NCBI GenBank assembly: GCA_965216875.1
Contig: OZ244207.1
Span: forward strand, 256,001 to 320,000
Length of the DNA stretch: 64,000 nt
DNA from: Rubripirellula sp.
GTDB taxonomy: Bacteria; Planctomycetota; Planctomycetia; Pirellulales; Pirellulaceae
Reading direction: 5' to 3'
In this document: positions 1-53,042 of the stretch, piece by piece
How the letters are laid out: every line of letters starts with the position of its first letter
Numbering within the stretch: position 1 is the first letter of the stretch
Notes under the pieces: model-generated
The model's database searches: none
The model's input: only the letters and a program-made list of their open reading frames with translations
What the model was told of the DNA's origin: nothing
Program-made: the position numbers and the translations under genes

Positions 1-483
1 GCGCCCCAAAAGAATGCGCCGCGTGAGAATTGGGTCGAGTTCTTTGCTGAGCAGCGACTTGAGTTTCAAGTTCGCTGGGCCAACGACCAAGGGCTGATCA
101 GCACGCGTTGCCGAAATCGTTGTGACGCCATCATCAACCGCCTGGGATCGCTCCTCGCTGGCAGGACGGACGAGACCTGCTTGCTGCACGGCGACCTTTG
201 GAGCGGCAACTACCTTTGCAATGCTGAGGGCCGCCCCGTGGTCATCGACCCGGCCGTCTACTACGGGTGTCGCGAAGCGGAATTTGGGATGCTGAAGCTA
301 TTCGGTAGCTGTCCGCCGGGCTTTTACGACGCCTATCAGGCGACATTTCCGATGCCTGGCGGTTGGCAACAGCGGGTCAATGTCTATGTTCTTTATCATC
401 TGCTCAACCATTTGAACCTGTTTGGCAGTGGCTACCTTGGCTCGTGTGAGTCGACGGCGGCGAGCATCTTGCAAGACTCGTAG
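1..483 (+). CDS. Fructosamine kinase family protein (5'-truncated by window edge)
   Basis: Frame +1 is open from base 1 ([20 protein letters not shown]...). Family motifs [24 protein letters not shown] and [11 protein letters not shown] are present. Confidence 0.9.
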
Positions 484-39747: not shown

Positions 39748-40713
39748 ATGGCTTCTACGACCGCCGAGACCGTTTCGTCACACGGGGTGACGATTGATGC
39801 CCAGTCACATCAGAAGCTGCATGCGATGAGCCATGCGTCGCTGGTTCGCGGCGTGGTCTTTGTCGTGCTCTATTTCGCGAGCGTCGGCGGTGTTCTCACG
39901 ATCCTATCCACGCAGGAAGGCGTCTGGCGTTGGGGCCCAATGCGTTGGGGCTGCTGCGTTCCGCTCTACTTGATTGCTGCAGCCTCACTTCACGGGGTGA
40001 GTTTATTCACGCACGAAGCTGTTCACGGCGTGCTCAGCCGCATCCGGATCGTCAATCGATGGATGGGTATGATCTGCGCGATGCCAGTACTGCAGAACTT
40101 TTCAGCCTACAAAGTCTTGCATCTGAGGCATCACAAACACCTCGGCCAGGATGGCGATCCCGATCACTACGACAACTACAGTCGTTGGACATGGTTGGTC
40201 TTTTCGATGCACTGGGTGCGGTTGTTGGTCGGCTATCCGATCTATATCGTCATGATTCCGATCCTCGGGTATCGGCAGGCCAACCCAGCCGATCGGCGTT
40301 GGATACTGTTCGAAGTCGCGTTGCTGGCTTGTGCGGTCACGCTCATTCTCTCTTCGCCCGTTTCTTGGTGGACGCTTTGGCATGCGTGGGCCGTGCCGAT
40401 GTTGATCATCAACACGTTTGTGAACATTCGAGGGATGAGCCAGCACACATTTCTTGAGCTTCCAGAGGATCCCGTTCAGGGGACACGGTCAATACTGACC
40501 AACCCGGTCACCGAGTTTTTCATGTGCAATGAAAACTACCACCTCGAGCATCATCTCTTTCCGCGTGTGCCGTGGTACCACTTGAAGGGGCTGCATGCCG
40601 AAATCAAAGATCAACTCACCGAACGCCGCGCCCCCTTCGTCGCGTCTTACTTCGAGTTTGTACGTGAATTCGTTCGGAAAAGCTGGGCTCGAAGTCCGCT
40701 AGGCCGAGGCTAA
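39748..40713 (+). CDS. Membrane fatty acid desaturase family protein
   Basis: Three His boxes HEAVH, HLRHHKH and YHLEHH, then FPRVPWYHL. TM segments present. Confidence 0.92.
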   Translation: MASTTAETVSSHGVTIDAQSHQKLHAMSHASLVRGVVFVVLYFASVGGVLTILSTQEGVWRWGPMRWGCCVPLYLIAAASLHGVSLFTHEAVHGVLSRIRIVNRWMGMICAMPVLQNFSAYKVLHLRHHKHLGQDGDPDHYDNYSRWTWLVFSMHWVRLLVGYPIYIVMIPILGYRQANPADRRWILFEVALLACAVTLILSSPVSWWTLWHAWAVPMLIINTFVNIRGMSQHTFLELPEDPVQGTRSILTNPVTEFFMCNENYHLEHHLFPRVPWYHLKGLHAEIKDQLTERRAPFVASYFEFVREFVRKSWARSPLGRG

Positions 40714-40716
40714 CGC

Positions 40717-41595
40717 GTGCTGGCGGAAAGACCATCGACAACCCACAGCAGTACGCTGATGCGGCACGAGGTTCTGCTCATGCTGATGGGCCTTGGCACT
40801 CTTGTCGCCTTGCTTGTGGGGACAGAAAACTCCCATCGGGTCTGCGCCGAGGTGTTTCTTGCAACGGCCATCTACGCAGGCCTTGGTCTCCTACTGGGAC
40901 GCCTCCGTTCCGGCCACACCGTCAAGCTACGCTTGTCGCTCGGATATTTCTATGTCCTTTGGTACTTCTTGTCAGTCGCTCGGTTTGTCGAGGCGTTGGA
41001 GCTGACAACCTTTGACACGACCTTGCTCGCCATCGACCAAAAGTTCCTTGGCGATACGCCCGCAGTCACGCTCGATCGTTGGGTCTCGCCCGCAGCGACC
41101 GAAGTCATGAGTGGCTTGTATCTGTCGTATCTCGTTTATTTGCACGTTGCGATCGTGCACGCGTTGGTTATGCCGGTCGAGACGAGCCGCAAGTTTGCGA
41201 CCTGGTTGTTTAGCGCGTATGCGATCAGTATGCCCTGCTATTTGCTCGTCCCCGCGGTTGGTCCCAAGCTTGCCTTTGCTGATCTGTTTGCCAGCGACTT
41301 GGTCGGAGGCTTTCTCTCTCGCTGGAATCGTCGGATCGTCGAGCCGGCCGGTGCAAAGTACGATGTCTTTCCCAGTCTACACGTGTTGATCACTTTGACG
41401 CTGTTGACCTTCGACTACCGTTTCTGTCGCATTCGGTTTTACGTGATGTCGGTTGTCGCCATCGGGATTTTTGCATCAACGCTTTATTTGCGTTACCACT
41501 ATCTTGTCGATCTTGTCGCTGGGATTGGTTTCTACTTCGTGGCGCTGGTTCTCTTTTGGGAAAGGAAAGAATTGGATGTGGCTACCGACACCTGA
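40717..41595 (+). CDS. PAP2-superfamily membrane protein, AUR1/inositol-phosphorylceramide-synthase-like
   Basis: YLLVPAVGP, DVFPSLH, STLYLRYHYLVD, matching the AUR1-type FPSLH and HYxxD motifs. Confidence 0.82.
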   Translation: MLAERPSTTHSSTLMRHEVLLMLMGLGTLVALLVGTENSHRVCAEVFLATAIYAGLGLLLGRLRSGHTVKLRLSLGYFYVLWYFLSVARFVEALELTTFDTTLLAIDQKFLGDTPAVTLDRWVSPAATEVMSGLYLSYLVYLHVAIVHALVMPVETSRKFATWLFSAYAISMPCYLLVPAVGPKLAFADLFASDLVGGFLSRWNRRIVEPAGAKYDVFPSLHVLITLTLLTFDYRFCRIRFYVMSVVAIGIFASTLYLRYHYLVDLVAGIGFYFVALVLFWERKELDVATDT

Positions 41596-42688
41596 ATCGG
41601 AAGAGGGTGAGCAAGCGGATTGGGGTGAGTCGGCGGCCAAGCTTCCGTTGGCGTTTGCACAGGTGCGCGAAGATCCTGAGGTCGACTTGCAGATCCTCGA
41701 TCGCCTTGAGTCTCCCAAGCGAGCGTTGATGATTGCATCCGGCGGTGAAACGGCGGCCGTACTCGCCACCCGGTCGCTTGAACAGATTCATTTGGTCGAC
41801 GTGAATCCAGCTCAAGTCGCGCTGACCTTCTACAAGCTGTTCTTGCTTGAAACACATAGCGCGGCCGAAAGATTGGCGCTGCTGGGGCATGCCGACTGCG
41901 ACCCCGAGCAACGTCAAAACACGCTCGATGGGTATTTGCATTCGATCGAATTGCCGTCCGATTTCTTCGGCCCCGCAGAGACGATTGCGCGGTTTGGTGT
42001 CGACTATTGCGGCCGATACGAATGGCTGTTCGCGCGGATGCGACAACGACTTCGTCCTCACCAGGACGCGTTGCATGAGCTGCTCTGCCTTTCGGATCCA
42101 GAGAAACAGTCAGCGATCGCTGCACCGCGCACAACGCTTGGGCAAGCCATCGATGCGGCGTTCGAAGAAACGATGGAGCTTTCAAAGTTGGTCGAATTGT
42201 TTGGTCCCGACGCAACAGCTAATCGAGTCAAGCCGTTTAGCCAACACTTTGCGGATCAAACCCGTGCGGTACTTCGATCGCAGTCTGCTGCAAACAACCC
42301 GTTCTTGCATGATCTGTTTCTCGGGCGATTTGACTCTTCGCCCTGGGATTGGTTGAAGCTTGACCCACAGGAGATACAACCCGCGTTTTCATGGTCGGTA
42401 TCAACGATGAAGGAGTACCTAGAGTCGGAGGACGATCTCCGATTTGATTTCATCCATTTGTCGAACACGCTCGATTGGATCAGTCCCGAGGAGGCAAAGA
42501 CGGTCCTGAAATTAGCTCACCAGAAACTCACAAGTGGCGGAGCCGTCTTGATTCGTCAACTCAATTCGCAACTCGATATTCGTGCGATCGAAAGCGAGCT
42601 CCGTTGGGATGTTGAACTCTCGACGCAGCTTCATCGTAGAGATAAGAGTTTCTTTTATCGAGAACTCCATGTCGGGTGGAAACATTGA
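41576..42688 (+). CDS. DUF3419 / BtaA-like SAM-dependent 3-amino-3-carboxypropyl transferase
   Basis: AFAQVREDPEVD, MIASGG, VDVNPAQ, GRYE, FDFIHLSNTLDW, DKSFFY. ATG 41576 with AAGGAAAG upstream, overlapping the PAP2 3' end. Confidence 0.82.
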   Translation: MWLPTPESEEGEQADWGESAAKLPLAFAQVREDPEVDLQILDRLESPKRALMIASGGETAAVLATRSLEQIHLVDVNPAQVALTFYKLFLLETHSAAERLALLGHADCDPEQRQNTLDGYLHSIELPSDFFGPAETIARFGVDYCGRYEWLFARMRQRLRPHQDALHELLCLSDPEKQSAIAAPRTTLGQAIDAAFEETMELSKLVELFGPDATANRVKPFSQHFADQTRAVLRSQSAANNPFLHDLFLGRFDSSPWDWLKLDPQEIQPAFSWSVSTMKEYLESEDDLRFDFIHLSNTLDWISPEEAKTVLKLAHQKLTSGGAVLIRQLNSQLDIRAIESELRWDVELSTQLHRRDKSFFYRELHVGWKH

Positions 42689-43632
42689 CCGAGATCATGA
42701 CGCTCGACGAGCAACCGGGGGCGGAGCTTGCCGAGGCGCTCGGCGAATTTGAAAAGCGTTTTCGCTACCCGCTCGGTCAGGGACGCAGTTTTTGGATCAG
42801 TCACGGTAGCGACTACACGCGATTCTTTCGCGCGATCGGCCAGGCACGTTGTTTTGTGGCTCGACGGGGCGACGAGATTGCGGGCGTTGTTTCGGTCGCA
42901 CGCTGTCCCTTGCGTTTGACCTCCGGCGAAGTGATCGAAGCATCCTTCATCGCGGACCTCAAGCTTGCAAAGCCAAGTGATGGTTGGACGTTGGTCCGTC
43001 TGCTGCGCGAAGCCGTTCCCTGGGCACGCGTGACCAATCAGACCCCCGGTTTTTCGGTGGTGATGGGCGGAACCGCCCGAAACCCCACCCAATACACGGG
43101 GCGATTGGGAATCCCCGCGTACGAAAAGTTGGCGGAAATCACGATTCTGCGAATCCCAAGCGACTTGTTGCCGAGTACTCAACCCTGGCAGGCCATCACT
43201 CCGAATGAAGCGGCCGCTCGGCACGTCGAGTTGACGCCAGGACACTTTGCCACACAGGGCGGCAATCACGTTTTGCGCAGTCAAGTGCAACCACACGGGC
43301 TCCTGTTAACAAGCGGAAAGGCCTGCGGGATTCTCGAAGACACAAGGCAATGCAAGAGGTTGTTCCTGGATGACGGGGAAGAACTCGTGTCCGCCCACCT
43401 GTCGAGCTTCGGATTCGAGGACTCCGAGGATGCGATCCAGTTGCTGGCTGTGGCGTCCGCAGTCTGCCGCGAACACGGCATACCCGCCTTCTTCGTTTCC
43501 GTGCCTAGCGTGAGTTGCAACGAGATCCTCGGAAAGCTCCGACAAGCTGACATCATGATCGCGCCGGCAACGGTTTACGGTTTTGGACTCGCACCCGATC
43601 AAAGATGGTCCGTCAATACAGCAGAGGTTTAG
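42676..43632 (+). CDS. GNAT-like acyltransferase (tandem-fold, hypothetical)
   Basis: DYTRFF, CFVARRGDEIAGVVS, FIADLK, FSVVMGG. Overlaps the DUF3419 stop. Confidence 0.6.
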   Translation: METLTEIMTLDEQPGAELAEALGEFEKRFRYPLGQGRSFWISHGSDYTRFFRAIGQARCFVARRGDEIAGVVSVARCPLRLTSGEVIEASFIADLKLAKPSDGWTLVRLLREAVPWARVTNQTPGFSVVMGGTARNPTQYTGRLGIPAYEKLAEITILRIPSDLLPSTQPWQAITPNEAAARHVELTPGHFATQGGNHVLRSQVQPHGLLLTSGKACGILEDTRQCKRLFLDDGEELVSAHLSSFGFEDSEDAIQLLAVASAVCREHGIPAFFVSVPSVSCNEILGKLRQADIMIAPATVYGFGLAPDQRWSVNTAEV

Positions 43633-43637
43633 CAAGA

Positions 43638-44324
43638 ATGATTGACCAAGACATGGAACGGAAAACAAGTCGCGTGGCTGCCGCGGCGACGGACATCGTG
43701 CAGCAAAGCGATATTTTGAAAAATCAGTATTTCGCCAAGCTTGCCAATGGCGAGATGACGCGAGATGAGTTTATTCGCAGTCAACGTCAGTTCTATTTTG
43801 CCGTGGAGTTTTTCTCACGCCCGATGTCGGCGCTTCTGATGCGGGTTCCTTCGGGCCCTCAGCGACTCGGCATCCTCGAGAACGTGGTCGAAGAGCATGG
43901 CAACTTTGATCGCAAGGCGTTTCATGAGGCGACGTTCCGTCAATTCCTCGGTGCATTGGGCGATAGCGAACCGATTGATCGAGATGAAGTCGAGCCAGCC
44001 GCACACGCATTCAACTCCGCGATCATGGCAGCATGCCTGTCCGATAGTTTGCGCGTTGGCATCGGTTGTCTCGGGATCATCGAATTAGCCTTCGCCGACA
44101 TCTCCGCATTGATCGGTAACGCTGTCGTTGGGCGAGGGTGGTTAACCGAAGACGCGCTCGTGCACTACACGCTGCATGCGGAGTTGGACAAAAAGCACGC
44201 GGCCGATTTCTTTGAACTAGTGGAAGCTGACTGGAACGAACCAGAGCATGTCGCCGAAATCGAACGAGGACTGCGGCTCGGCGTGTACGTCTTCGACCGC
44301 CTCTACAAAGACCTTCTTAGCTGA
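43638..44324 (+). CDS. Haem-oxygenase-like diiron enzyme (CADD/PqqC/TenA superfamily)
   Basis: QFYFAVEFF, ENVVEEHG...FHE, IIE and HAELDKKH give an E-H-E-H-D-H ligand set. It starts 5 nt after the upstream stop. Confidence 0.85.
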   Translation: MIDQDMERKTSRVAAAATDIVQQSDILKNQYFAKLANGEMTRDEFIRSQRQFYFAVEFFSRPMSALLMRVPSGPQRLGILENVVEEHGNFDRKAFHEATFRQFLGALGDSEPIDRDEVEPAAHAFNSAIMAACLSDSLRVGIGCLGIIELAFADISALIGNAVVGRGWLTEDALVHYTLHAELDKKHAADFFELVEADWNEPEHVAEIERGLRLGVYVFDRLYKDLLS

Positions 44325-44351
44325 ATCGGTTTCGGGGAGTTGCGATCGAAA

Positions 44352-44757
44352 AGGGACAGAAAGATGAAGGACAGAAAAATGGGGTGAGGGAACGGGAGGT
44401 TTGAGAGAGGCAAAAAGATGGTGGGCAGAAAAATGAAGAGTGGGTTGATGGATTGGTGAAGTTGGGGTTGAAGAGGGACAGAGAGATGAAGGGCAGAATA
44501 ATGGGGTGAGGGATCGGGAGGTTTGAGAGAGGCAAAAAGATGGTGGGCAGAAAAACGAAGAGTGGGTTGATGGATTGGTGAAGTTGGGGTTGAAGAGGGA
44601 CAGAGAGATGAAGGGCAGAATAATGGGGTGAGGGGACGGGAGGTTTGAGGGGAGGCAAAAAGATTGTGGGCAGAAAAATGAAGAGTGAGCTGATTGATTG
44701 GTGAGGTTGGGGTTGAAGAGGGACAGAAAGATGGAGGACAGAAAATGGGGTGAGGGA
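44352..44757 (+). repeat. Purine-rich tandem array, ~122-bp unit, ~3.3 copies
   Basis: Unit starts (agggacaga) at 44352, 44474, 44596 and 44719. Confidence 0.92.
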
Positions 44758-44909
44758 TGGTGCTCGATGGACGGAAAACAGATGACGGATTAGTGAGCGG
44801 ACGAGCAAAGCGATTGATCGGTTGGAGAAGCCGGCAGGGGCATTGATCTCAGCACCGCTCCTTGATGCTCCCAATCGTCAAGGAATTTGCCACTCTCAAT
44901 CTCGCACGT

Positions 44910-45186
44910 CCCCTCACTCCATTTTTCTGTCTCATCTCCCCGCCCCTCACTCCTCGATTCCCGTCCCACATTTTTTTTTGCCCCCCATCTTTTTGCCTCT
45001 CTCCAATCTCTCCCACCAGCCACCCCATTTTTCTGTCCTCCATCTTTCTGTCCCATCTCCCCGCCCCTCACTCCTCGATTCTCGTCCCGCAATATTTTTG
45101 CCCCCATCTTTTTGCCTCTCTCCAATCTCCCCCACCAGCCACTCCATTTTTCTGTCCTTCAATCTTTCTGTCTCATCTCTCCCCGC
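44910..45186 (-). repeat. Pyrimidine-rich tandem array, ~121-bp unit, ~2.2 copies, carrying the left array's motifs in inverted orientation
   Basis: catctc..ccgc recurs at 44933, 45054 and 45174. 45021-45054 is the reverse complement of 44720-44752 apart from one A. Confidence 0.9.
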
Positions 45187-45300
45187 AATTCCCCACCTCA
45201 GCTCGTTGGCAAACTGGGCGATGGATGACTAAATTGTGTCTTCCTGCCTGCCGGAATATGAACTTCGGCGCCCCGCCCCACCACCACAGCGAGTCCATTG

Positions 45301-49039: not shown

Positions 49040-50392
49040 GTGGAGTCGAAAAACCCAAACCAATCGTTCCATTGGCAAGTGCATGCCGATGCCGCAGCAC
49101 TCGTTGCCCATTTGATCGACGAAGTGTCTCAGCATTTGCCGGCACTGACGCGACTCAAGCAATTGATGCTCGATCATACGGGCACGCGTCTGATGGACTG
49201 GATTGACCATTTCTTCTTCGGTGTTGATCCTACGCTTCAGGGTCAATTGGAAGCGTGTGGCTTTGAGTCGGTGCCAGAAGAGGAAGGCGTTTGGCGGCAC
49301 GCCGGCGGGTTGTTTCCCGATGTATTGATGAAACAAACATCGGTCGCTGGACTCGCTTTAAAAGTTGAAAGCGTCGACGATTTTCTATTCAGTCACGCCA
49401 TCACCGCGTTGGTGGAAGGCGAACCCGATTCGCAGCTGCGTCGATGTGTGGTTTGGGAGAAGGGGCGTTGGCAATGTGTGGTCGTTGAACGACATGGCTA
49501 CGGCGGCTACGAGCCACAGCGCATCGATATGCGCATGCTCGGCCAGTCGGTCGTCCATGGTGTTCAACTAAAGCGGGTCCGGCGTATTTACGATGACGTC
49601 AATGCAGCGTTCGACGAACTCGATGCGTTGGTCGATGCCTCCACGGCAGACATCGGTTGCGATTGGACATGCGACCTTTTCTTTGCTGCGGAGCGAGCCT
49701 ATTGGCAAAGTCGCAATCACGCGGCGAGGATTCAAAAGGCACGGCAAGACGCTCTGGGACTTGGTTGGGCCAATCACGACCATCATACCTATCGATCGAG
49801 TCGAGAGCATTTTGCCAGACTCATCGGCTTGCTTGAAAAGATGGGCTTCGTTTGTCGAGAACGGTTTTACGGAGGTGCTGAAGCGGGCTGGGGGGCGCAA
49901 GTGCTTGAGCAAACCGGTACAGGGATTGTGGTGTTTGCCGACGTCGACATGTCGCCCGAGGAAGTGATGGGCGACTTTGCTCACGAAGGGTTACCGCAAA
50001 ACGACGATTTGGGCACGGTGGGGTTGTGGTGCAAACTTCATGGAGAAGCGATTTTCGAAGCGGGCATGCATCATCTTGAATGTCAATTTGATTATCGTGC
50101 CGCCGTGAAGCAACTCGCGGTTTTCGGCATCGAAACGATGTCGCCGTTTACCGATTTGCCCCACCTCAAACAGGCCTTTACCAAAGGGCAACGCTGGCCC
50201 ATTCGGACGTCGAAGATCAAAGCGGCCTTGGATGCGGGTGCCATTGATCAACAACAAGCCGATCGCTTTCGGCAGGAGGGCGCGATCGGATCCCACCTCG
50301 AGATTCTAGAACGCAACGGCGGCTACAAAGGCTTCAATCAATCTGGGATCAGCGAGATCATTCGGCAAACCGATCCACGCGGCGATGCGTAA
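49040..50392 (+). CDS. Divergent VOC-fold protein, HPPD-like non-haem iron dioxygenase candidate
   Basis: NHDHHTY, GMHHLE, LKQAFT, HLEILER and GFNQSGISEII parallel the HPPD motifs DH, GIQHIA, LLQIFT, FFEIIQR and GFGxGNF. Confidence 0.6.
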   Translation: MESKNPNQSFHWQVHADAAALVAHLIDEVSQHLPALTRLKQLMLDHTGTRLMDWIDHFFFGVDPTLQGQLEACGFESVPEEEGVWRHAGGLFPDVLMKQTSVAGLALKVESVDDFLFSHAITALVEGEPDSQLRRCVVWEKGRWQCVVVERHGYGGYEPQRIDMRMLGQSVVHGVQLKRVRRIYDDVNAAFDELDALVDASTADIGCDWTCDLFFAAERAYWQSRNHAARIQKARQDALGLGWANHDHHTYRSSREHFARLIGLLEKMGFVCRERFYGGAEAGWGAQVLEQTGTGIVVFADVDMSPEEVMGDFAHEGLPQNDDLGTVGLWCKLHGEAIFEAGMHHLECQFDYRAAVKQLAVFGIETMSPFTDLPHLKQAFTKGQRWPIRTSKIKAALDAGAIDQQQADRFRQEGAIGSHLEILERNGGYKGFNQSGISEIIRQTDPRGDA

Positions 50393-50442
50393 GATAAACA
50401 GCCGAAGAACGATACGACGATTCTGTAGGGTTGAATCTGCCG

Positions 50443-51771
50443 ATGCCACATGTTGCTTTCGCCGCCATGTCCGGTTTGAGAGTTCGCGAGAGTGAACTGC
50501 TCGAATTTGGAATGACCTTGCCAGGCCTGGCGAAGCGAGCGACCGCGTTGTCTGGCCTTCCATCGCTCGGACTGTTGACGCTCGCCGGAATGACTTCTGA
50601 CAGCGGTTGGACTTACAGCTACCACGATTCAAGCAGCGATACCCTTTTTGATGAAATCCTTGAACAGCAGCCGGATCTCGTTGCCGTCAGCGCGTTGACG
50701 GCATCAATCAATCAGGCCTATGCGCTGTGCGACTCACTTCGTGGATCCAATGTTCCGACGGTGATTGGCGGGCTTCATGCTACGGCGTTGCCGGACGAAG
50801 CGGCCGTGCACGCAACCAGTGTTTGCGTTGGTGATGGCGAATCGAGCTGGCCAACCATTCTCGCGGATGCCACGTTGGGACAGCTCAAGCCCATCTATCG
50901 CGCGACCAAACCATTCGACCTCGCTCATTGTCCGATGCCCGCGTTTTCGGCGTTGCCCGATCGTCGCCCTCAACGTTGGACGTTGCAGACCCAGCGTGGT
51001 TGCCCTTGGGCCTGTGAGTTTTGCGCGGCTAGTCGATTACTTGGGCCACCGAGATTCAAGCCAGTCGACCGTATTGCTGAAGAACTCGGCGTGATCAAAA
51101 AGCTTTCCCGCAACACACCCTGGGTCGAGCTTGCTGACGACAATACTTTTGCGGGACGACGTGACGCTCAGGAACTTCTTGATGTGCTCGCAGACGCGAA
51201 CATACGTTTTTTCACCGAAAGCGATTGGCGAATTGGCTGTCAACCCAAAGTTGTCCAGCGACTCGCCGAAGCGGGTTGCGTGCAATTACTCGTCGGCCTC
51301 GAATCACTTGCGTTTCGATATCCAGGTATGGGACGCAAACGCGCCGAACTTGACCAAATGACCGACGCGGTCGCAACGATCCAGGACCATGGAATTGTTG
51401 TCAACGGTTGTTTTATCATTGGTGCCGATGGTGAAACCAACGCATCGCTTGATGCGCTCGCCCAGTTTATTGACGAAAGCCCCATCGCGGAAATCCAACT
51501 GACTCTGCAGACCCCCTTTCCCGGGACCGCGCTTCATCGGCGTTTGGCAAAGCAAGGGCGACTACTTGTCGATCGTGATTGGTCCCACTGCACGTTATTC
51601 GACGTCGTGCACCAACCAGACCTCATGTCGGTCACCGAATTGGAGCAGGGGTTTCGGCGCGTTATGCGTGCCGTCTTTGGGGGGACGAGTGGCAAACGCC
51701 GATCCGAATTGCGACGCGAAGTGTCGCGGCGTCATCCCAACCATCACAGGATCAAGCGGGGGCATTCATGA
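50443..51771 (+). CDS. Cobalamin-binding-domain radical SAM protein
   Basis: PSLGLLTLAG, IGGLHAT, GDGE, QRGCPWACEFC (CxxxCxxC), DDN, VGLES, TPFPGT. Confidence 0.93.
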   Translation: MPHVAFAAMSGLRVRESELLEFGMTLPGLAKRATALSGLPSLGLLTLAGMTSDSGWTYSYHDSSSDTLFDEILEQQPDLVAVSALTASINQAYALCDSLRGSNVPTVIGGLHATALPDEAAVHATSVCVGDGESSWPTILADATLGQLKPIYRATKPFDLAHCPMPAFSALPDRRPQRWTLQTQRGCPWACEFCAASRLLGPPRFKPVDRIAEELGVIKKLSRNTPWVELADDNTFAGRRDAQELLDVLADANIRFFTESDWRIGCQPKVVQRLAEAGCVQLLVGLESLAFRYPGMGRKRAELDQMTDAVATIQDHGIVVNGCFIIGADGETNASLDALAQFIDESPIAEIQLTLQTPFPGTALHRRLAKQGRLLVDRDWSHCTLFDVVHQPDLMSVTELEQGFRRVMRAVFGGTSGKRRSELRREVSRRHPNHHRIKRGHS

Positions 51772-53042
51772 TCAGTCCGTGGACCATTGTTCAGTTTTTG
51801 TTTTTTCGCGAATCGGCGATTGTCAAGATTGCGGCATCACCTGCGGCGATAGGGGTTGGCGCAGGCTTTGTTCTGTCGGCTGGATTCGCAAGGGAGTATG
51901 ACGGCGAATATCTATTGGCCGAACCGTGGCACTTGCTCATCCCGTTGGTGGCTTCGTTGCTCGGCTGCATCGTGCTGTTCATCACGCTAGCGATCATCGA
52001 CGCGAACTGTACCAGAAAGTCGTTTGTGCCTTTGTTGAGAGTCTATTGGATGATGGCGCCGATGGCCTGGCTTTACGCGATCCCATTTGAACGCTTCCTT
52101 TCCGCGGGCGATGCGACACGAGCCAACCTGTGCTTGTTGGGAGTGGTTGCAATATGGCGCGTCGCGCTCATGATCCGCTGTATTCAGGTTCTATTTCATG
52201 CTCACTTGGTCTCGGCCACTGTTCCCGTGCTTCTTTTTGGGGATGCACTTGCACTGCTTGCACTCAAATTCGTTCCGGGGCCGATTTTCATGATCATGGG
52301 TGGCGTCCGCCTGACCGAGAGTGAGGGGACGATTCTCGGCATGCGAATGCTGCTTGGATTCGTTGGGGTGATTGCTCTGCCATTTCTTGTGATCTCTTTC
52401 GCCGTGCTATGCAACCGTGGAAAGCCCTGGCGGTGGATCGGGAAAGACCCTCGGTGGCAACCTGTGAAAGTCGCGAGAGCAACTTGGGCGGTGGTCATCC
52501 TTTCCCTGCTGATCTGGATTCCCATTTTGCCGACCACGCAAAAGGAGCAGGCGTTGCGTTACGATGCCGATCGGTTCATTCGAGGTGGCGATTTTGGTTC
52601 TCTCGTGACACGGTTGCAGGGCGTCGCGCAAGCAGAGATGCCACCCCATTGGGATCCGCCGCCGCGAACGGGCTACGGCGAGTTCAGTCCACACGTGCAC
52701 GACGTCGCAGCCAATCTGATGGATTCGGACGCACCCGATTGGTTGATCGAACGCTACGTAGAAAAGCTACGTTGGCAAGCCTCCTCTGGCGTTCCATGGT
52801 TCTTCAACTCGCACCAGTTCACTGAGCACGATGTTGTCGCCTACGTTGATTTGTTGGAACGTATTGACCCAGAGGTGGGACGTGAAATCGCCCGGCACGT
52901 TCGACCCTCGAGCGAGATGCCAGGTGATTCAAGCCCTCGAGCCGATGCATTGCGACGATTGCGAAAAATCGCTGGCGTCGAAGAAGAGCCCAAGCCCTCA
53001 GTGGAAGCGTTTCTCGATGACGAGCAAGACACGCCGCTGTGA
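51768..53042 (+). CDS. Hypothetical multi-pass membrane protein
   Basis: ATGA overlap with the radical SAM stop. About eight TM segments (AREYD, WLYAIPFERF) and a soluble C-terminal domain. Confidence 0.75.
   Translation: MISPWTIVQFLFFRESAIVKIAASPAAIGVGAGFVLSAGFAREYDGEYLLAEPWHLLIPLVASLLGCIVLFITLAIIDANCTRKSFVPLLRVYWMMAPMAWLYAIPFERFLSAGDATRANLCLLGVVAIWRVALMIRCIQVLFHAHLVSATVPVLLFGDALALLALKFVPGPIFMIMGGVRLTESEGTILGMRMLLGFVGVIALPFLVISFAVLCNRGKPWRWIGKDPRWQPVKVARATWAVVILSLLIWIPILPTTQKEQALRYDADRFIRGGDFGSLVTRLQGVAQAEMPPHWDPPPRTGYGEFSPHVHDVAANLMDSDAPDWLIERYVEKLRWQASSGVPWFFNSHQFTEHDVVAYVDLLERIDPEVGREIARHVRPSSEMPGDSSPRADALRRLRKIAGVEEEPKPSVEAFLDDEQDTPL

Follow-up and report, generated by a model that had tools for sequence, protein, structure and literature searches.

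A conserved three-gene core with two optional membrane enzymes in Rubripirellula points to an apparently undescribed, SAM-derived aminolipid

The cassette described here consists of a three-gene core, encoding a DUF3419 protein, a tandem GNAT and a heme-oxygenase-like dimetal oxidase (HDO), plus two optional membrane enzymes. The collected evidence supports a conserved pathway that seems not to have been described before, and its enzymes suggest an aminolipid derived from SAM. A published description of the pathway was not found in the open-access literature, nor was a characterised pathway with this combination of genes, in agreement with an earlier note on this DNA. The five genes are located on a stretch of 64,000 nucleotides from a Rubripirellula sp. 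(hereafter the window), as follows:

39748..40713, + strand: ORF1, accessory membrane di-iron desaturase/hydroxylase (PF00487) of a cassette-tied subfamily (Pfam, His boxes)
40717..41595, + strand: ORF2, accessory AUR1/IPC-synthase-like PAP2_3 membrane enzyme (PF14378, motifs)
41576..42688, + strand: ORF3, core DUF3419 (BtaA-family) SAM-dependent transferase, predicted aminocarboxypropyl donor and BtaA paralogue (PF11899)
42676..43632, + strand: ORF4, core tandem-GNAT, predicted N-acyltransferase with an NMT/Eis-like fold (predicted fold)
43638..44324, + strand: ORF5, core HDO of the 3-His/3-carboxylate type, CADD-related (PF14518)

The gaps between these same-strand genes are 3, -20, -13 and 5 nt, as was claimed before, and agree with the coordinates and with the starts of ORF3 (41576) and ORF5 (43638), which are internal ATGs within longer listed ORFs and on which the gap values are based. 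Judged by this spacing, the five genes would be co-transcribed; promoter and terminator scans yielded counts at chance level. The earlier family assignments were confirmed: Pfam supports four of them (ORF1, FA_desaturase, E 2e-46; ORF2, PAP2_3, E 2e-15; ORF3, DUF3419, E 2.6e-24; ORF5, Haem_oxygenas_2, E 1e-19), and ORF4, which matched no Pfam family, is a tandem GNAT according to its predicted fold. The cassette is self-contained within 4.6 kb and lacks a carrier protein. The GC values of an earlier spot check (0.50 and 0.63) are numerically right, but the low-GC meaning attached to them is noise; around 15% of the 60-nt tiles of the window are as low as 0.50 and around 15% as high as 0.63. 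The recent foreign origin that had been hinted at finds no support: the GC content is 55.6% for the cassette versus 56.3% for the genome (26th percentile among 1805 tiles), and GC3 and tetranucleotide distance are equally ordinary, giving no signal of a foreign island.

The presence of the cassette genes was inventoried in 80 GNAT-anchored loci from several phyla, and we found DUF3419 in 79, the HDO in 74, the desaturase in 53 and PAP2 in 31 (29 HMM-detected and 2 divergent copies). Organisms with homologues include Roseiconus nitratireducens, Stieleria tagensis, Gemmata obscuriglobus and a Haloferula sp. Because the grouping recurs in these 80 loci it is not a matter of chance. All three core genes were present in 12 of the 14 HDO-anchored metagenome loci with room, and a distant branch keeps the core as well (all 10 loci have DUF3419 plus GNAT, and 8 have the HDO). 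The gene trees are concordant (patristic rho 0.79-0.92, 0 of 200 permutations), and four proteins are fusions of DUF3419 and HDO. An obligatory chain of all five genes that opens with desaturation and dephosphorylation is not supported, considering that among the 61 loci with sufficient flanking sequence on either side, the window included, 20 contain the core alone, PAP2 is missing from 35 and the desaturase from 21. Of 26 loci with PAP2, 25 also have the desaturase, a pattern that is not significant once relatedness is taken into account (median p 0.5-0.6 over 6-8 independent pairs). The desaturase and PAP2 both lie upstream of DUF3419 in the two five-gene orders seen most often. Among 300 genomes, the 5 others whose desaturase is at least 52% identical all have core genes, in three cases unlinked.

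In one record a MmpL gene lies downstream of the core. Other recurring neighbours were limited to widespread families (kinases, sulfatases, DUF1501), flanks specific to a lineage and a single membrane protein. The latter has no Pfam domain, no usable Atlas match and 30 unnamed or hypothetical homologues. The scans of viral_contigs did not confirm any relative, and neither the phage collection nor PHROGs yielded a match; the sole viral evidence is that giant-virus proteins, with Yasminevirus and Satyrvirus among the hits, match the DUF3419 model by fold.

The first core enzyme, ORF3, scores 85.7 bits against PF11899, which is above the cut-off, versus 337-426 bits for BtaA-type genes. In a quick IQ-TREE analysis 25 BtaA-type rows, recognised from their Pfam score and from a methyltransferase gene downstream (in all 7 tested) instead of from a characterised reference, fall on one side of a branch valued at 99, and ORF3 falls within a 45-row clade valued at 100. 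Judged by the separate clade and the difference in score, ORF3 is not a BtaA orthologue. The identity to BtaA-type proteins is around 21-22% over the full length, with differences at positions invariant in BtaA (W to R31, N to T59, LD to SN296-297) and with the motifs ED, SxG, D75, DW, R327 and DR-x-x-x-Y in common, the last of which carries K instead of R in the ORF3 of the window. The protein has a class I SAM fold (Z around 15 across some 160 of 370 residues) with a large helical insert that was unmatched in the comparison, and the fold by itself would fit a methyltransferase equally well. Foldseek with the ORF3 model gave no PDB match at E<=0.001 and a PDB sequence search nothing significant. 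A btaB gene does not recur beside the cassette in the loci and was not found in the genome, where the best match is 27% identical versus 44-63% among BtaB-like proteins. At least 8 of the sampled genomes possess both a cassette-type DUF3419 and a higher-scoring one, and other DUF3419 clades adjoin either a fatty-acyl reductase together with MMPL, or UbiA, or else an acyl-AMP ligase. Few aminocarboxypropyl transferases have been characterised, and for BtaA the acceptor is described as diacylglycerol (DAG) (PMC11869996). Given that ORF3 lies outside the BtaA clade, DAG as its acceptor, which had been assumed before, is an analogy only. ORF3 and BtaA likely share their first chemistry.

The closest solved relative of ORF5 is CADD (E 8e-13), HrmI is a weak PDB match (E 0.0024), and TIGR04305 is matched with 44 bits where its cut-off is 200. 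The ligand set E86, H96, E149, H180, D184 and H187 aligns to the metal ligands of CADD and is invariant in 74-75 rows. It follows the E-H-E-H-D-H motif of the HDOs (PMC13725569), only about a dozen of which, out of >10,000, are described as functionally validated, with amino acids and fatty acids as the substrates of the characterised ones (PMC13108848). The relationship to CADD could be taken to mean that ORF5 is a self-sacrificing p-aminobenzoate synthase and its neighbours unrelated, yet we consider this hardly credible, since the position of Tyr27, whose Y27F change is described to abolish pABA formation by CADD (PMC9522330), is occupied by Phe in 57 and by Leu in 16 of 75 rows, that of Lys152 by Ile or Leu in all 75, and the HDO is joined to DUF3419 in the four fusions. 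A caveat is the conserved Tyr one position before the Tyr27 site (Y31, in 69 of 75 rows). At the positions checked (57, 60, 61) the family has no extra conserved carboxylate, and the cassette contains no redox partner gene beside ORF5.

For ORF4 a PDB sequence search gave nothing significant, and the NCBIfam matches among 54 GNAT homologues were limited to weak ones to aminoglycoside acetyltransferases, each in at most 10 of the 54. The predicted model (pLDDT 95) suggests more: in Foldseek its best matches are N-myristoyltransferases (NMTs; E 7e-10), and via an alignment of model residues 2..318 with yeast NMT 76..455 (Z 17.5) the last residue of the chain would coincide with NMT L455, as read from the end points of the alignment range only. 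The best fold matches differ by less than 1 Z (NMT 17.5 and 17.0, Pyrococcus GNAT 16.9, with 9% identity), therefore the fold does not fix the acyl chain length. The bacterial ceramide synthase bCerS, also a GNAT, was not among the 15 matches listed. The C-terminus of ORF4 is well conserved (W311 in 77 of 77, E317 in 75 of 77 rows), and L455 is the base proposed for NMT (PMC4964394). As the closest folds are those of protein N-myristoyltransferase and Eis, the core might modify a macromolecule, protein N-termini or RNA, instead of a lipid or metabolite; Rossmann-fold aminocarboxypropyl transfer to RNA is described for Tyw2 (PMC10491745), two of the DUF3419-HDO fusions have signal-peptide-like N-termini, and the giant-virus matches could be read likewise. 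We nevertheless judge this very unlikely, considering that no conserved precursor or target gene of at least 70-90 aa recurs beside the cassette and that the accessory genes encode membrane lipid enzymes.

Of the two accessory enzymes, ORF1 has four predicted TM segments and conserved His boxes (H89-H93, H125-H129, H233 and H265-H269). Its scores on curated models (GntB 76, CrtR 56, DesB 24 and DesA 18 bits) are far below the cut-offs of 350-500 bits (380 for GntB), and within this sub-cut-off range they are higher for hydroxylases than for acyl-lipid desaturases. The nearest plasmid matches are around 23-28% identical, one being annotated as MocD-like, and a PDB sequence search returned nothing significant. 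ORF2 carries the motifs FPSLH and RYHYLVD, with H222, H261 and D265 in 30 of 30 rows; its best PDB match is AUR1 (E 0.003) and it reaches 23.4 bits on NF052609 (cut-off 480). Enzymes of the IPC-synthase type release DAG. Together with the use of DAG by BtaA (PMC11869996) and the position of both genes ahead of DUF3419 in the commonest five-gene orders, this would suit the order put forward in the earlier note, in which desaturation and dephosphorylation first supply an unsaturated DAG that the core then decorates. That order is unlikely in view of the optional nature of both genes, the IPC-synthase signature, the poor score of ORF1 against acyl-lipid desaturases, and the near absence of PAP2 without a desaturase, a dependence that a plain DAG supplier would not need. 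Since PAP2 is IPC-synthase-like and occurs almost only with the desaturase, both enzymes likely act late, in tailoring instead of substrate supply.

On this basis we favour, tentatively and at somewhat less than an even chance, an N-acylated, oxidised homoserine-ether lipid as the product, to which five-gene strains add a hydroxyl and a phospho-decoration. Pointers to a lipid are the two accessory genes, both of membrane lipid-enzyme families, with which the MmpL gene and the neighbours of other DUF3419 clades agree. In the first step, suggested by family and shared motifs, DUF3419 would transfer the aminocarboxypropyl arm from SAM to the hydroxyl of a lipid, either DAG or another lipid alcohol. 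The resulting O-homoserine ether (+101 Da) would have a free amine, like the ether that BtaA forms on DAG. The HDO would subsequently oxidise the arm, as the fusions suggest, and would most likely release C1 as CO2; of all the steps this one is the least secure. The NMT-like GNAT would, considering its fold, N-acylate the nitrogen of the arm from acyl-CoA, with its C-terminal carboxylate as base and acylation replacing the methylation by BtaB; the latter two steps may be reversed. In five-gene strains a hydroxyl (or double bond) would be introduced by the enzyme of the desaturase family, and the IPC-synthase-like PAP2 would attach a phospho-headgroup to it with release of DAG.

The three core enzymes are predicted to be soluble and 20 of the 61 loci have neither desaturase nor PAP2, therefore a water-soluble product is possible. 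The cassette could accordingly make a small non-proteinogenic amino acid or nitrile, the HDO catalysing N-hydroxylation or decarboxylation, DUF3419 forming the O-homoserine ether, the GNAT capping the nitrogen and the desaturase creating an enol ether. Such chemistry would resemble that of oxyvinylglycine or canaline, and RtxC makes the enol ether in rhizobitoxine. This desaturase for an enol-ether amino acid (PMC6304460), the substrates of characterised HDOs (PMC13108848), the weak HrmI match and the best curated match of ORF1, GntB, named an L-arginine hydroxylase, give this alternative a small but real chance, against which stand the PAP2_3 and MmpL partners, which point to lipids, and the lack of a small-molecule exporter, resistance gene, ligase or regulator recurring beside the cassette in 160 loci.

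For the favoured homoserine-ether lipid, an aminocarboxypropyl arm that loses C1 is described in nocuolin A (PMC9486936) and bursatellin, where the nitrile step is itself a proposal and an aminocarboxypropyl transferase of bur-ox forms an O-homoserine ether (PMC11869996). Were the HDO to convert the amine to an oxime or nitrile, nothing would be left to N-acylate, so both precedents require either that acylation precedes this reaction or that the nitrogen is still nucleophilic. A table on the cly cluster places a DUF3419 protein directly before the nocL homologue (PMC7923214) and NocK is labelled a 'putative transferase' (PMC5333925), from which we infer that the two correspond; the main texts of the nocuolin papers do not state that NocK is BtaA-like, and their supplements may bear on the point.

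If true, the proposed pathway would yield a lipid or metabolite class without a described member, a new branch of bacterial membrane-lipid chemistry, and substrates for three uncharacterised clades, the BtaA paralogue, the CADD-related HDO and the bacterial NMT-like acyltransferase. The natural three-, four- and five-gene forms predict its intermediates. A more far-reaching reading, which we regard as quite unlikely, is that the five-gene form makes a sphingolipid mimic without serine palmitoyltransferase (no gene of that kind recurs in the loci), with a SAM-derived backbone, an NMT-like amide, decarboxylation, a hydroxyl and a phospho-headgroup; it would imply a new lipid class across PVC bacteria, mycobacteria and probably giant viruses.

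Compared with known systems, noc/cly and bur-ox resemble the proposed product in their methionine-derived arm with C1 loss, but are built on FAAL/ACP/PKS/NRPS scaffolds, whereas the cassette encodes neither a carrier protein nor an assembly line; an HDO or tandem GNAT is not named in the available portions of those papers. The guanitoxin gnt cluster pairs GntB, a desaturase-like hydroxylase, with an HDO, and GntB is the best curated model for ORF1, yet at only 76 bits versus 380, and no other gnt model matched the five genes. AUR1 and the bacterial phosphoinositol dihydroceramide synthase have the FPSLH and H-x-x-x-D motifs in common with ORF2, which also matches NF052609 weakly, but only the C-terminal 60 residues correspond. 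ORF5 has the same E-H-E-H-D-H ligands as the CADD/HDO superfamily (UndA, BesC, HrmI, AetD, SznF) and lacks equivalents of Tyr27 and Lys152 of CADD. With NMT and Eis, ORF4 shares the tandem GNAT fold, and its last residue would align to the catalytic C-terminus, but it is a bacterial protein of 318 aa within a metabolic operon, at around 9% identity. Finally, the BtaA/BtaB pair (DGTS) and the cassette have the DUF3419 family, the class I SAM fold and the ED/SxG/DW/DR motifs in common, and differ in that the cassette enzyme belongs to a separate clade (around 21-22% identity), without a btaB being found, and is partnered by an HDO and an NMT-like GNAT.

The five one-strand genes of the earlier note, with their gaps, were recovered:

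39748-44324, + strand: cassette of five ORFs (ORF1 desaturase, ORF2 PAP2, ORF3 DUF3419, ORF4 GNAT, ORF5 HDO; gaps of 3, -20, -13 and 5 nt)

The family calls hold as well, as Pfam assigned FA_desaturase, PAP2_3, DUF3419 and Haem_oxygenas_2 (the heme-oxygenase-like dimetal oxidase, HDO), and ORF4, for which Pfam gave no family match, has the fold of a tandem GNAT. All five genes are single-copy, ORF3 is the genome's only DUF3419, and the nearest named homologues come from Pirellulaceae. The suspected low GC content was not confirmed (55.6% for the cassette vs 56.3% for the genome). The cassette is flanked by a TerC gene on one side and by a repeat-filled spacer, followed by an oxidoreductase gene, on the other. 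Directly after the operon, at window positions 44328-45200, lies a non-coding array of about three 122-nt purine-rich tandem units followed by pyrimidine-rich inverted copies, which could fold into a long hairpin; blastn gives 22 matches to the unit across the genome, in 8 clusters. Further on (49040-53042), a 450-aa ORF that lacks a Pfam or NCBIfam match precedes a gene for a B12-binding radical SAM protein and an overlapping ORF of 487 aa on the same strand.

Conservation of the cluster beyond this genome was borne out in a GTDB scan anchored on the GNAT alignment. Within the best 80 of 107 confirmed loci, same-strand partners identified by HMM were DUF3419 (79/80), HDO (74/80), desaturase (53/80) and PAP2 (29/80), with a divergent PAP2 after the HDO gene in two further loci. 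The core of DUF3419, GNAT and HDO was complete in 58 of the 60 loci flanked on each side by 1.2 kb or more. All five genes were found by HMM in 28 of these best 80, ordered HDO-DES-PAP-DUF-GNAT in 16, as in the window in 11 (one with an insertion) and otherwise in one. By record title the hosts are Planctomycetota, Verrucomicrobiota, Pseudomonadota, Vulcanimicrobiota, Myxococcota and Latescibacterota, and occurrence is patchy (GNAT in 22 of 301 phylum genomes, HDO in 7 of 151 family genomes, DUF3419 in 3 of 3 genus genomes). HDO-anchored metagenome loci (80 of 299, mostly on short contigs) contained GNAT in 65 cases, DUF3419 in 42, desaturase in 6 and PAP2 in 5; among the 14 with room, 12 had the core, one missed the GNAT and one had HDO alone. 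Weak GNAT matches led to a distant branch with DUF3419 and GNAT in 10/10 loci and HDO in 8/10, and four more loci of this same-core branch were found. A 240-aa membrane protein (motifs WWGPGF and D-R-x-R-R), for which Pfam and Atlas searches gave no match, adjoins the core in 17 loci, 4 from GTDB (L033:1127-1858, L037, L057, L096) and 13 from metagenomes; desaturase or PAP2 occurred in 0/17, many of these contigs being short.

The gene trees are concordant (patristic rho 0.79-0.92), with 29-32 of 71-75 splits common to the core-gene trees, and phylum labels require 13 changes vs a minimum of 5. This fits block transfer of the cassette, although bin labels and paralogy could contribute. Four DUF3419-HDO fusions occurred among the 8 longest of 150 listed representatives; two of these (P0269, P0272) have N-termini resembling signal peptides, which is unexpected in an enzyme that depends on SAM. 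A fifth fused protein, possibly artefactual, combines part of DUF3419 with the beginning of the GNAT. In a Mycobacterium riyadhense record (L234:5010-10671) the gene order is DUF3419-HDO-GNAT-MmpL, adjoining PE/PPE genes, and Mycobacterium lacus also has a homologue. At the level of fold, the DUF3419 model has matches in a 632-aa Yasminevirus protein (TM 0.70, E 3e-15) and in a Satyrvirus fragment.

We tentatively propose, at somewhat below an even chance, that the cassette makes an aminolipid, by chemical steps that we infer throughout. An aminocarboxypropyl arm would be moved onto a lipid hydroxyl and then oxidised, most likely losing C1; N-acylation would follow, and lastly, as an option, hydroxylation and transfer of a phospho-headgroup.

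For the first step, the predicted structure of ORF3 (pLDDT 93.7) shows a class I SAM fold that carries a large helical insert; many methyltransferases align with it over about 160 of its 370 residues (Z 13-15), none prominently. Across 301 genomes PF11899 scores are tiered, from 337-426 bits at the top through middle tiers to the cassette type below 130 bits. Since a methyltransferase gene follows in 7/7 tested cases, the top tier was taken as btaAB. In the window's class (L204-L228) many planctomycetes, among them 12 of the 15 genomes from a single family, have such a pair, which is likely btaAB; the window's genome yielded no btaB orthologue. A quick IQ-TREE of 83 DUF3419 rows, from which two partial rows and half the cassette loci were omitted, separates the top tier from the window's clade by long starred branches. 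Of the residues invariant in BtaA, ORF3 retains E32-D33, S55-x-G57, D75, Q80, K87, N241, D300-W301, R327, D356 and Y361, whereas some others are altered; its SAM chemistry may thus be that of BtaA, possibly with another acceptor. Modification of a macromolecule is improbable. Middle-tier contexts comprise fatty-acyl reductase with MMPL, UbiA with dikinase, and acyl-AMP ligase. In the first of these contexts (L235:6565-11575, L236:4802-9840), the DUF3419 clade lies between genes for a PF07993 fatty-acyl reductase and an MMPL transporter, which suggests an alkyl-homoserine ether lipid system. Loci L239, L240, L237 and L242 present UbiA with a PEP-dikinase-like protein (L239 also HMG-CoA reductase), an adenylation-carrier-condensation protein with dikinase and a LolA-like protein, or an AMP-binding enzyme.

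The six ligands of the HDO motif E-H-E-H-D-H are all invariant. Its closest solved relative is the p-aminobenzoate synthase CADD, but the substrate residues of CADD are absent, so that the cassette HDO is not taken as such a synthase and p-aminobenzoate synthesis is scarcely credible. On amino or fatty acids, HDOs are known to catalyse C-C cleavage, desaturation, N-oxygenation and rearrangement (excerpt of PMC13108848), and the sequence does not choose among them. A soluble amino-acid derivative as product is unlikely. For an arm losing C1, excerpts describe two precedents: nocuolin A, which retains C2-C4 and N of methionine (PMC9486936) and whose cluster is bordered by a DUF3419 gene (PMC7923214), and bursatellin (PMC11869996).

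Both Foldseek and VIA-align place the ORF4 model (pLDDT 95.3) nearest to N-myristoyltransferases (VIA-align Z 17.5, rmsd 4.0, 288 aligned), the top VIA-align match being tied with a second N-myristoyltransferase and a Pyrococcus GNAT (Eis 15.5). The alignment continues through the final residue of each chain; for N-myristoyltransferase, the proposed base is the C-terminal carboxylate, that of L455 (excerpt of PMC4964394). Nearly all complete cassette copies end in W-x-x-x-(T/S)-x-E-(I/V); 3 have other endings and 2 have the Glu changed, and 2 further copies are cut by contig ends. The modelled fold and kept C-terminus point to acylation of a primary amine.

Of the cassette genes, the desaturase is conserved best (mean identity 59%); it has complete His boxes and scores nearer to hydroxylase models than to acyl-lipid desaturases, every score being below cut-off. 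Plasmid relatives share 22-28% identity. Matches at E<=1e-30 occur in 8 genomes; the 5 other genomes with identity of at least 52% all have core genes, 0.5-0.7 Mb off in two and on a separate contig in one, where PAP2 adjoins the desaturase. Both genomes with 33-38% relatives lack a GNAT match. The desaturase is thus tied to the core even where unlinked. PAP2 bears AUR1 motifs, and no conserved phosphatase C1 motif was seen. In 61 loci with room, both accessory genes occurred in 25, desaturase only in 15, PAP2 only in 1 and neither in 20; an independent-pairs test of the PAP2-desaturase association was not significant. The order first suggested, in which these two genes act first and supply unsaturated diacylglycerol to the core, is rather unlikely. 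The little probability left goes to other ideas, such as methyl transfer.

Among the matches listed in the open-access literature (main texts, mostly outside subscription journals, including excerpts of PMC10491745 and PMC12971839), no description of the cassette was found, in line with the earlier note, which knew of no characterised pathway with this combination. The parts belong to known families; their combination and the product appear undescribed. As far as found, the cassette appears to be a new variation on BtaA-type chemistry.
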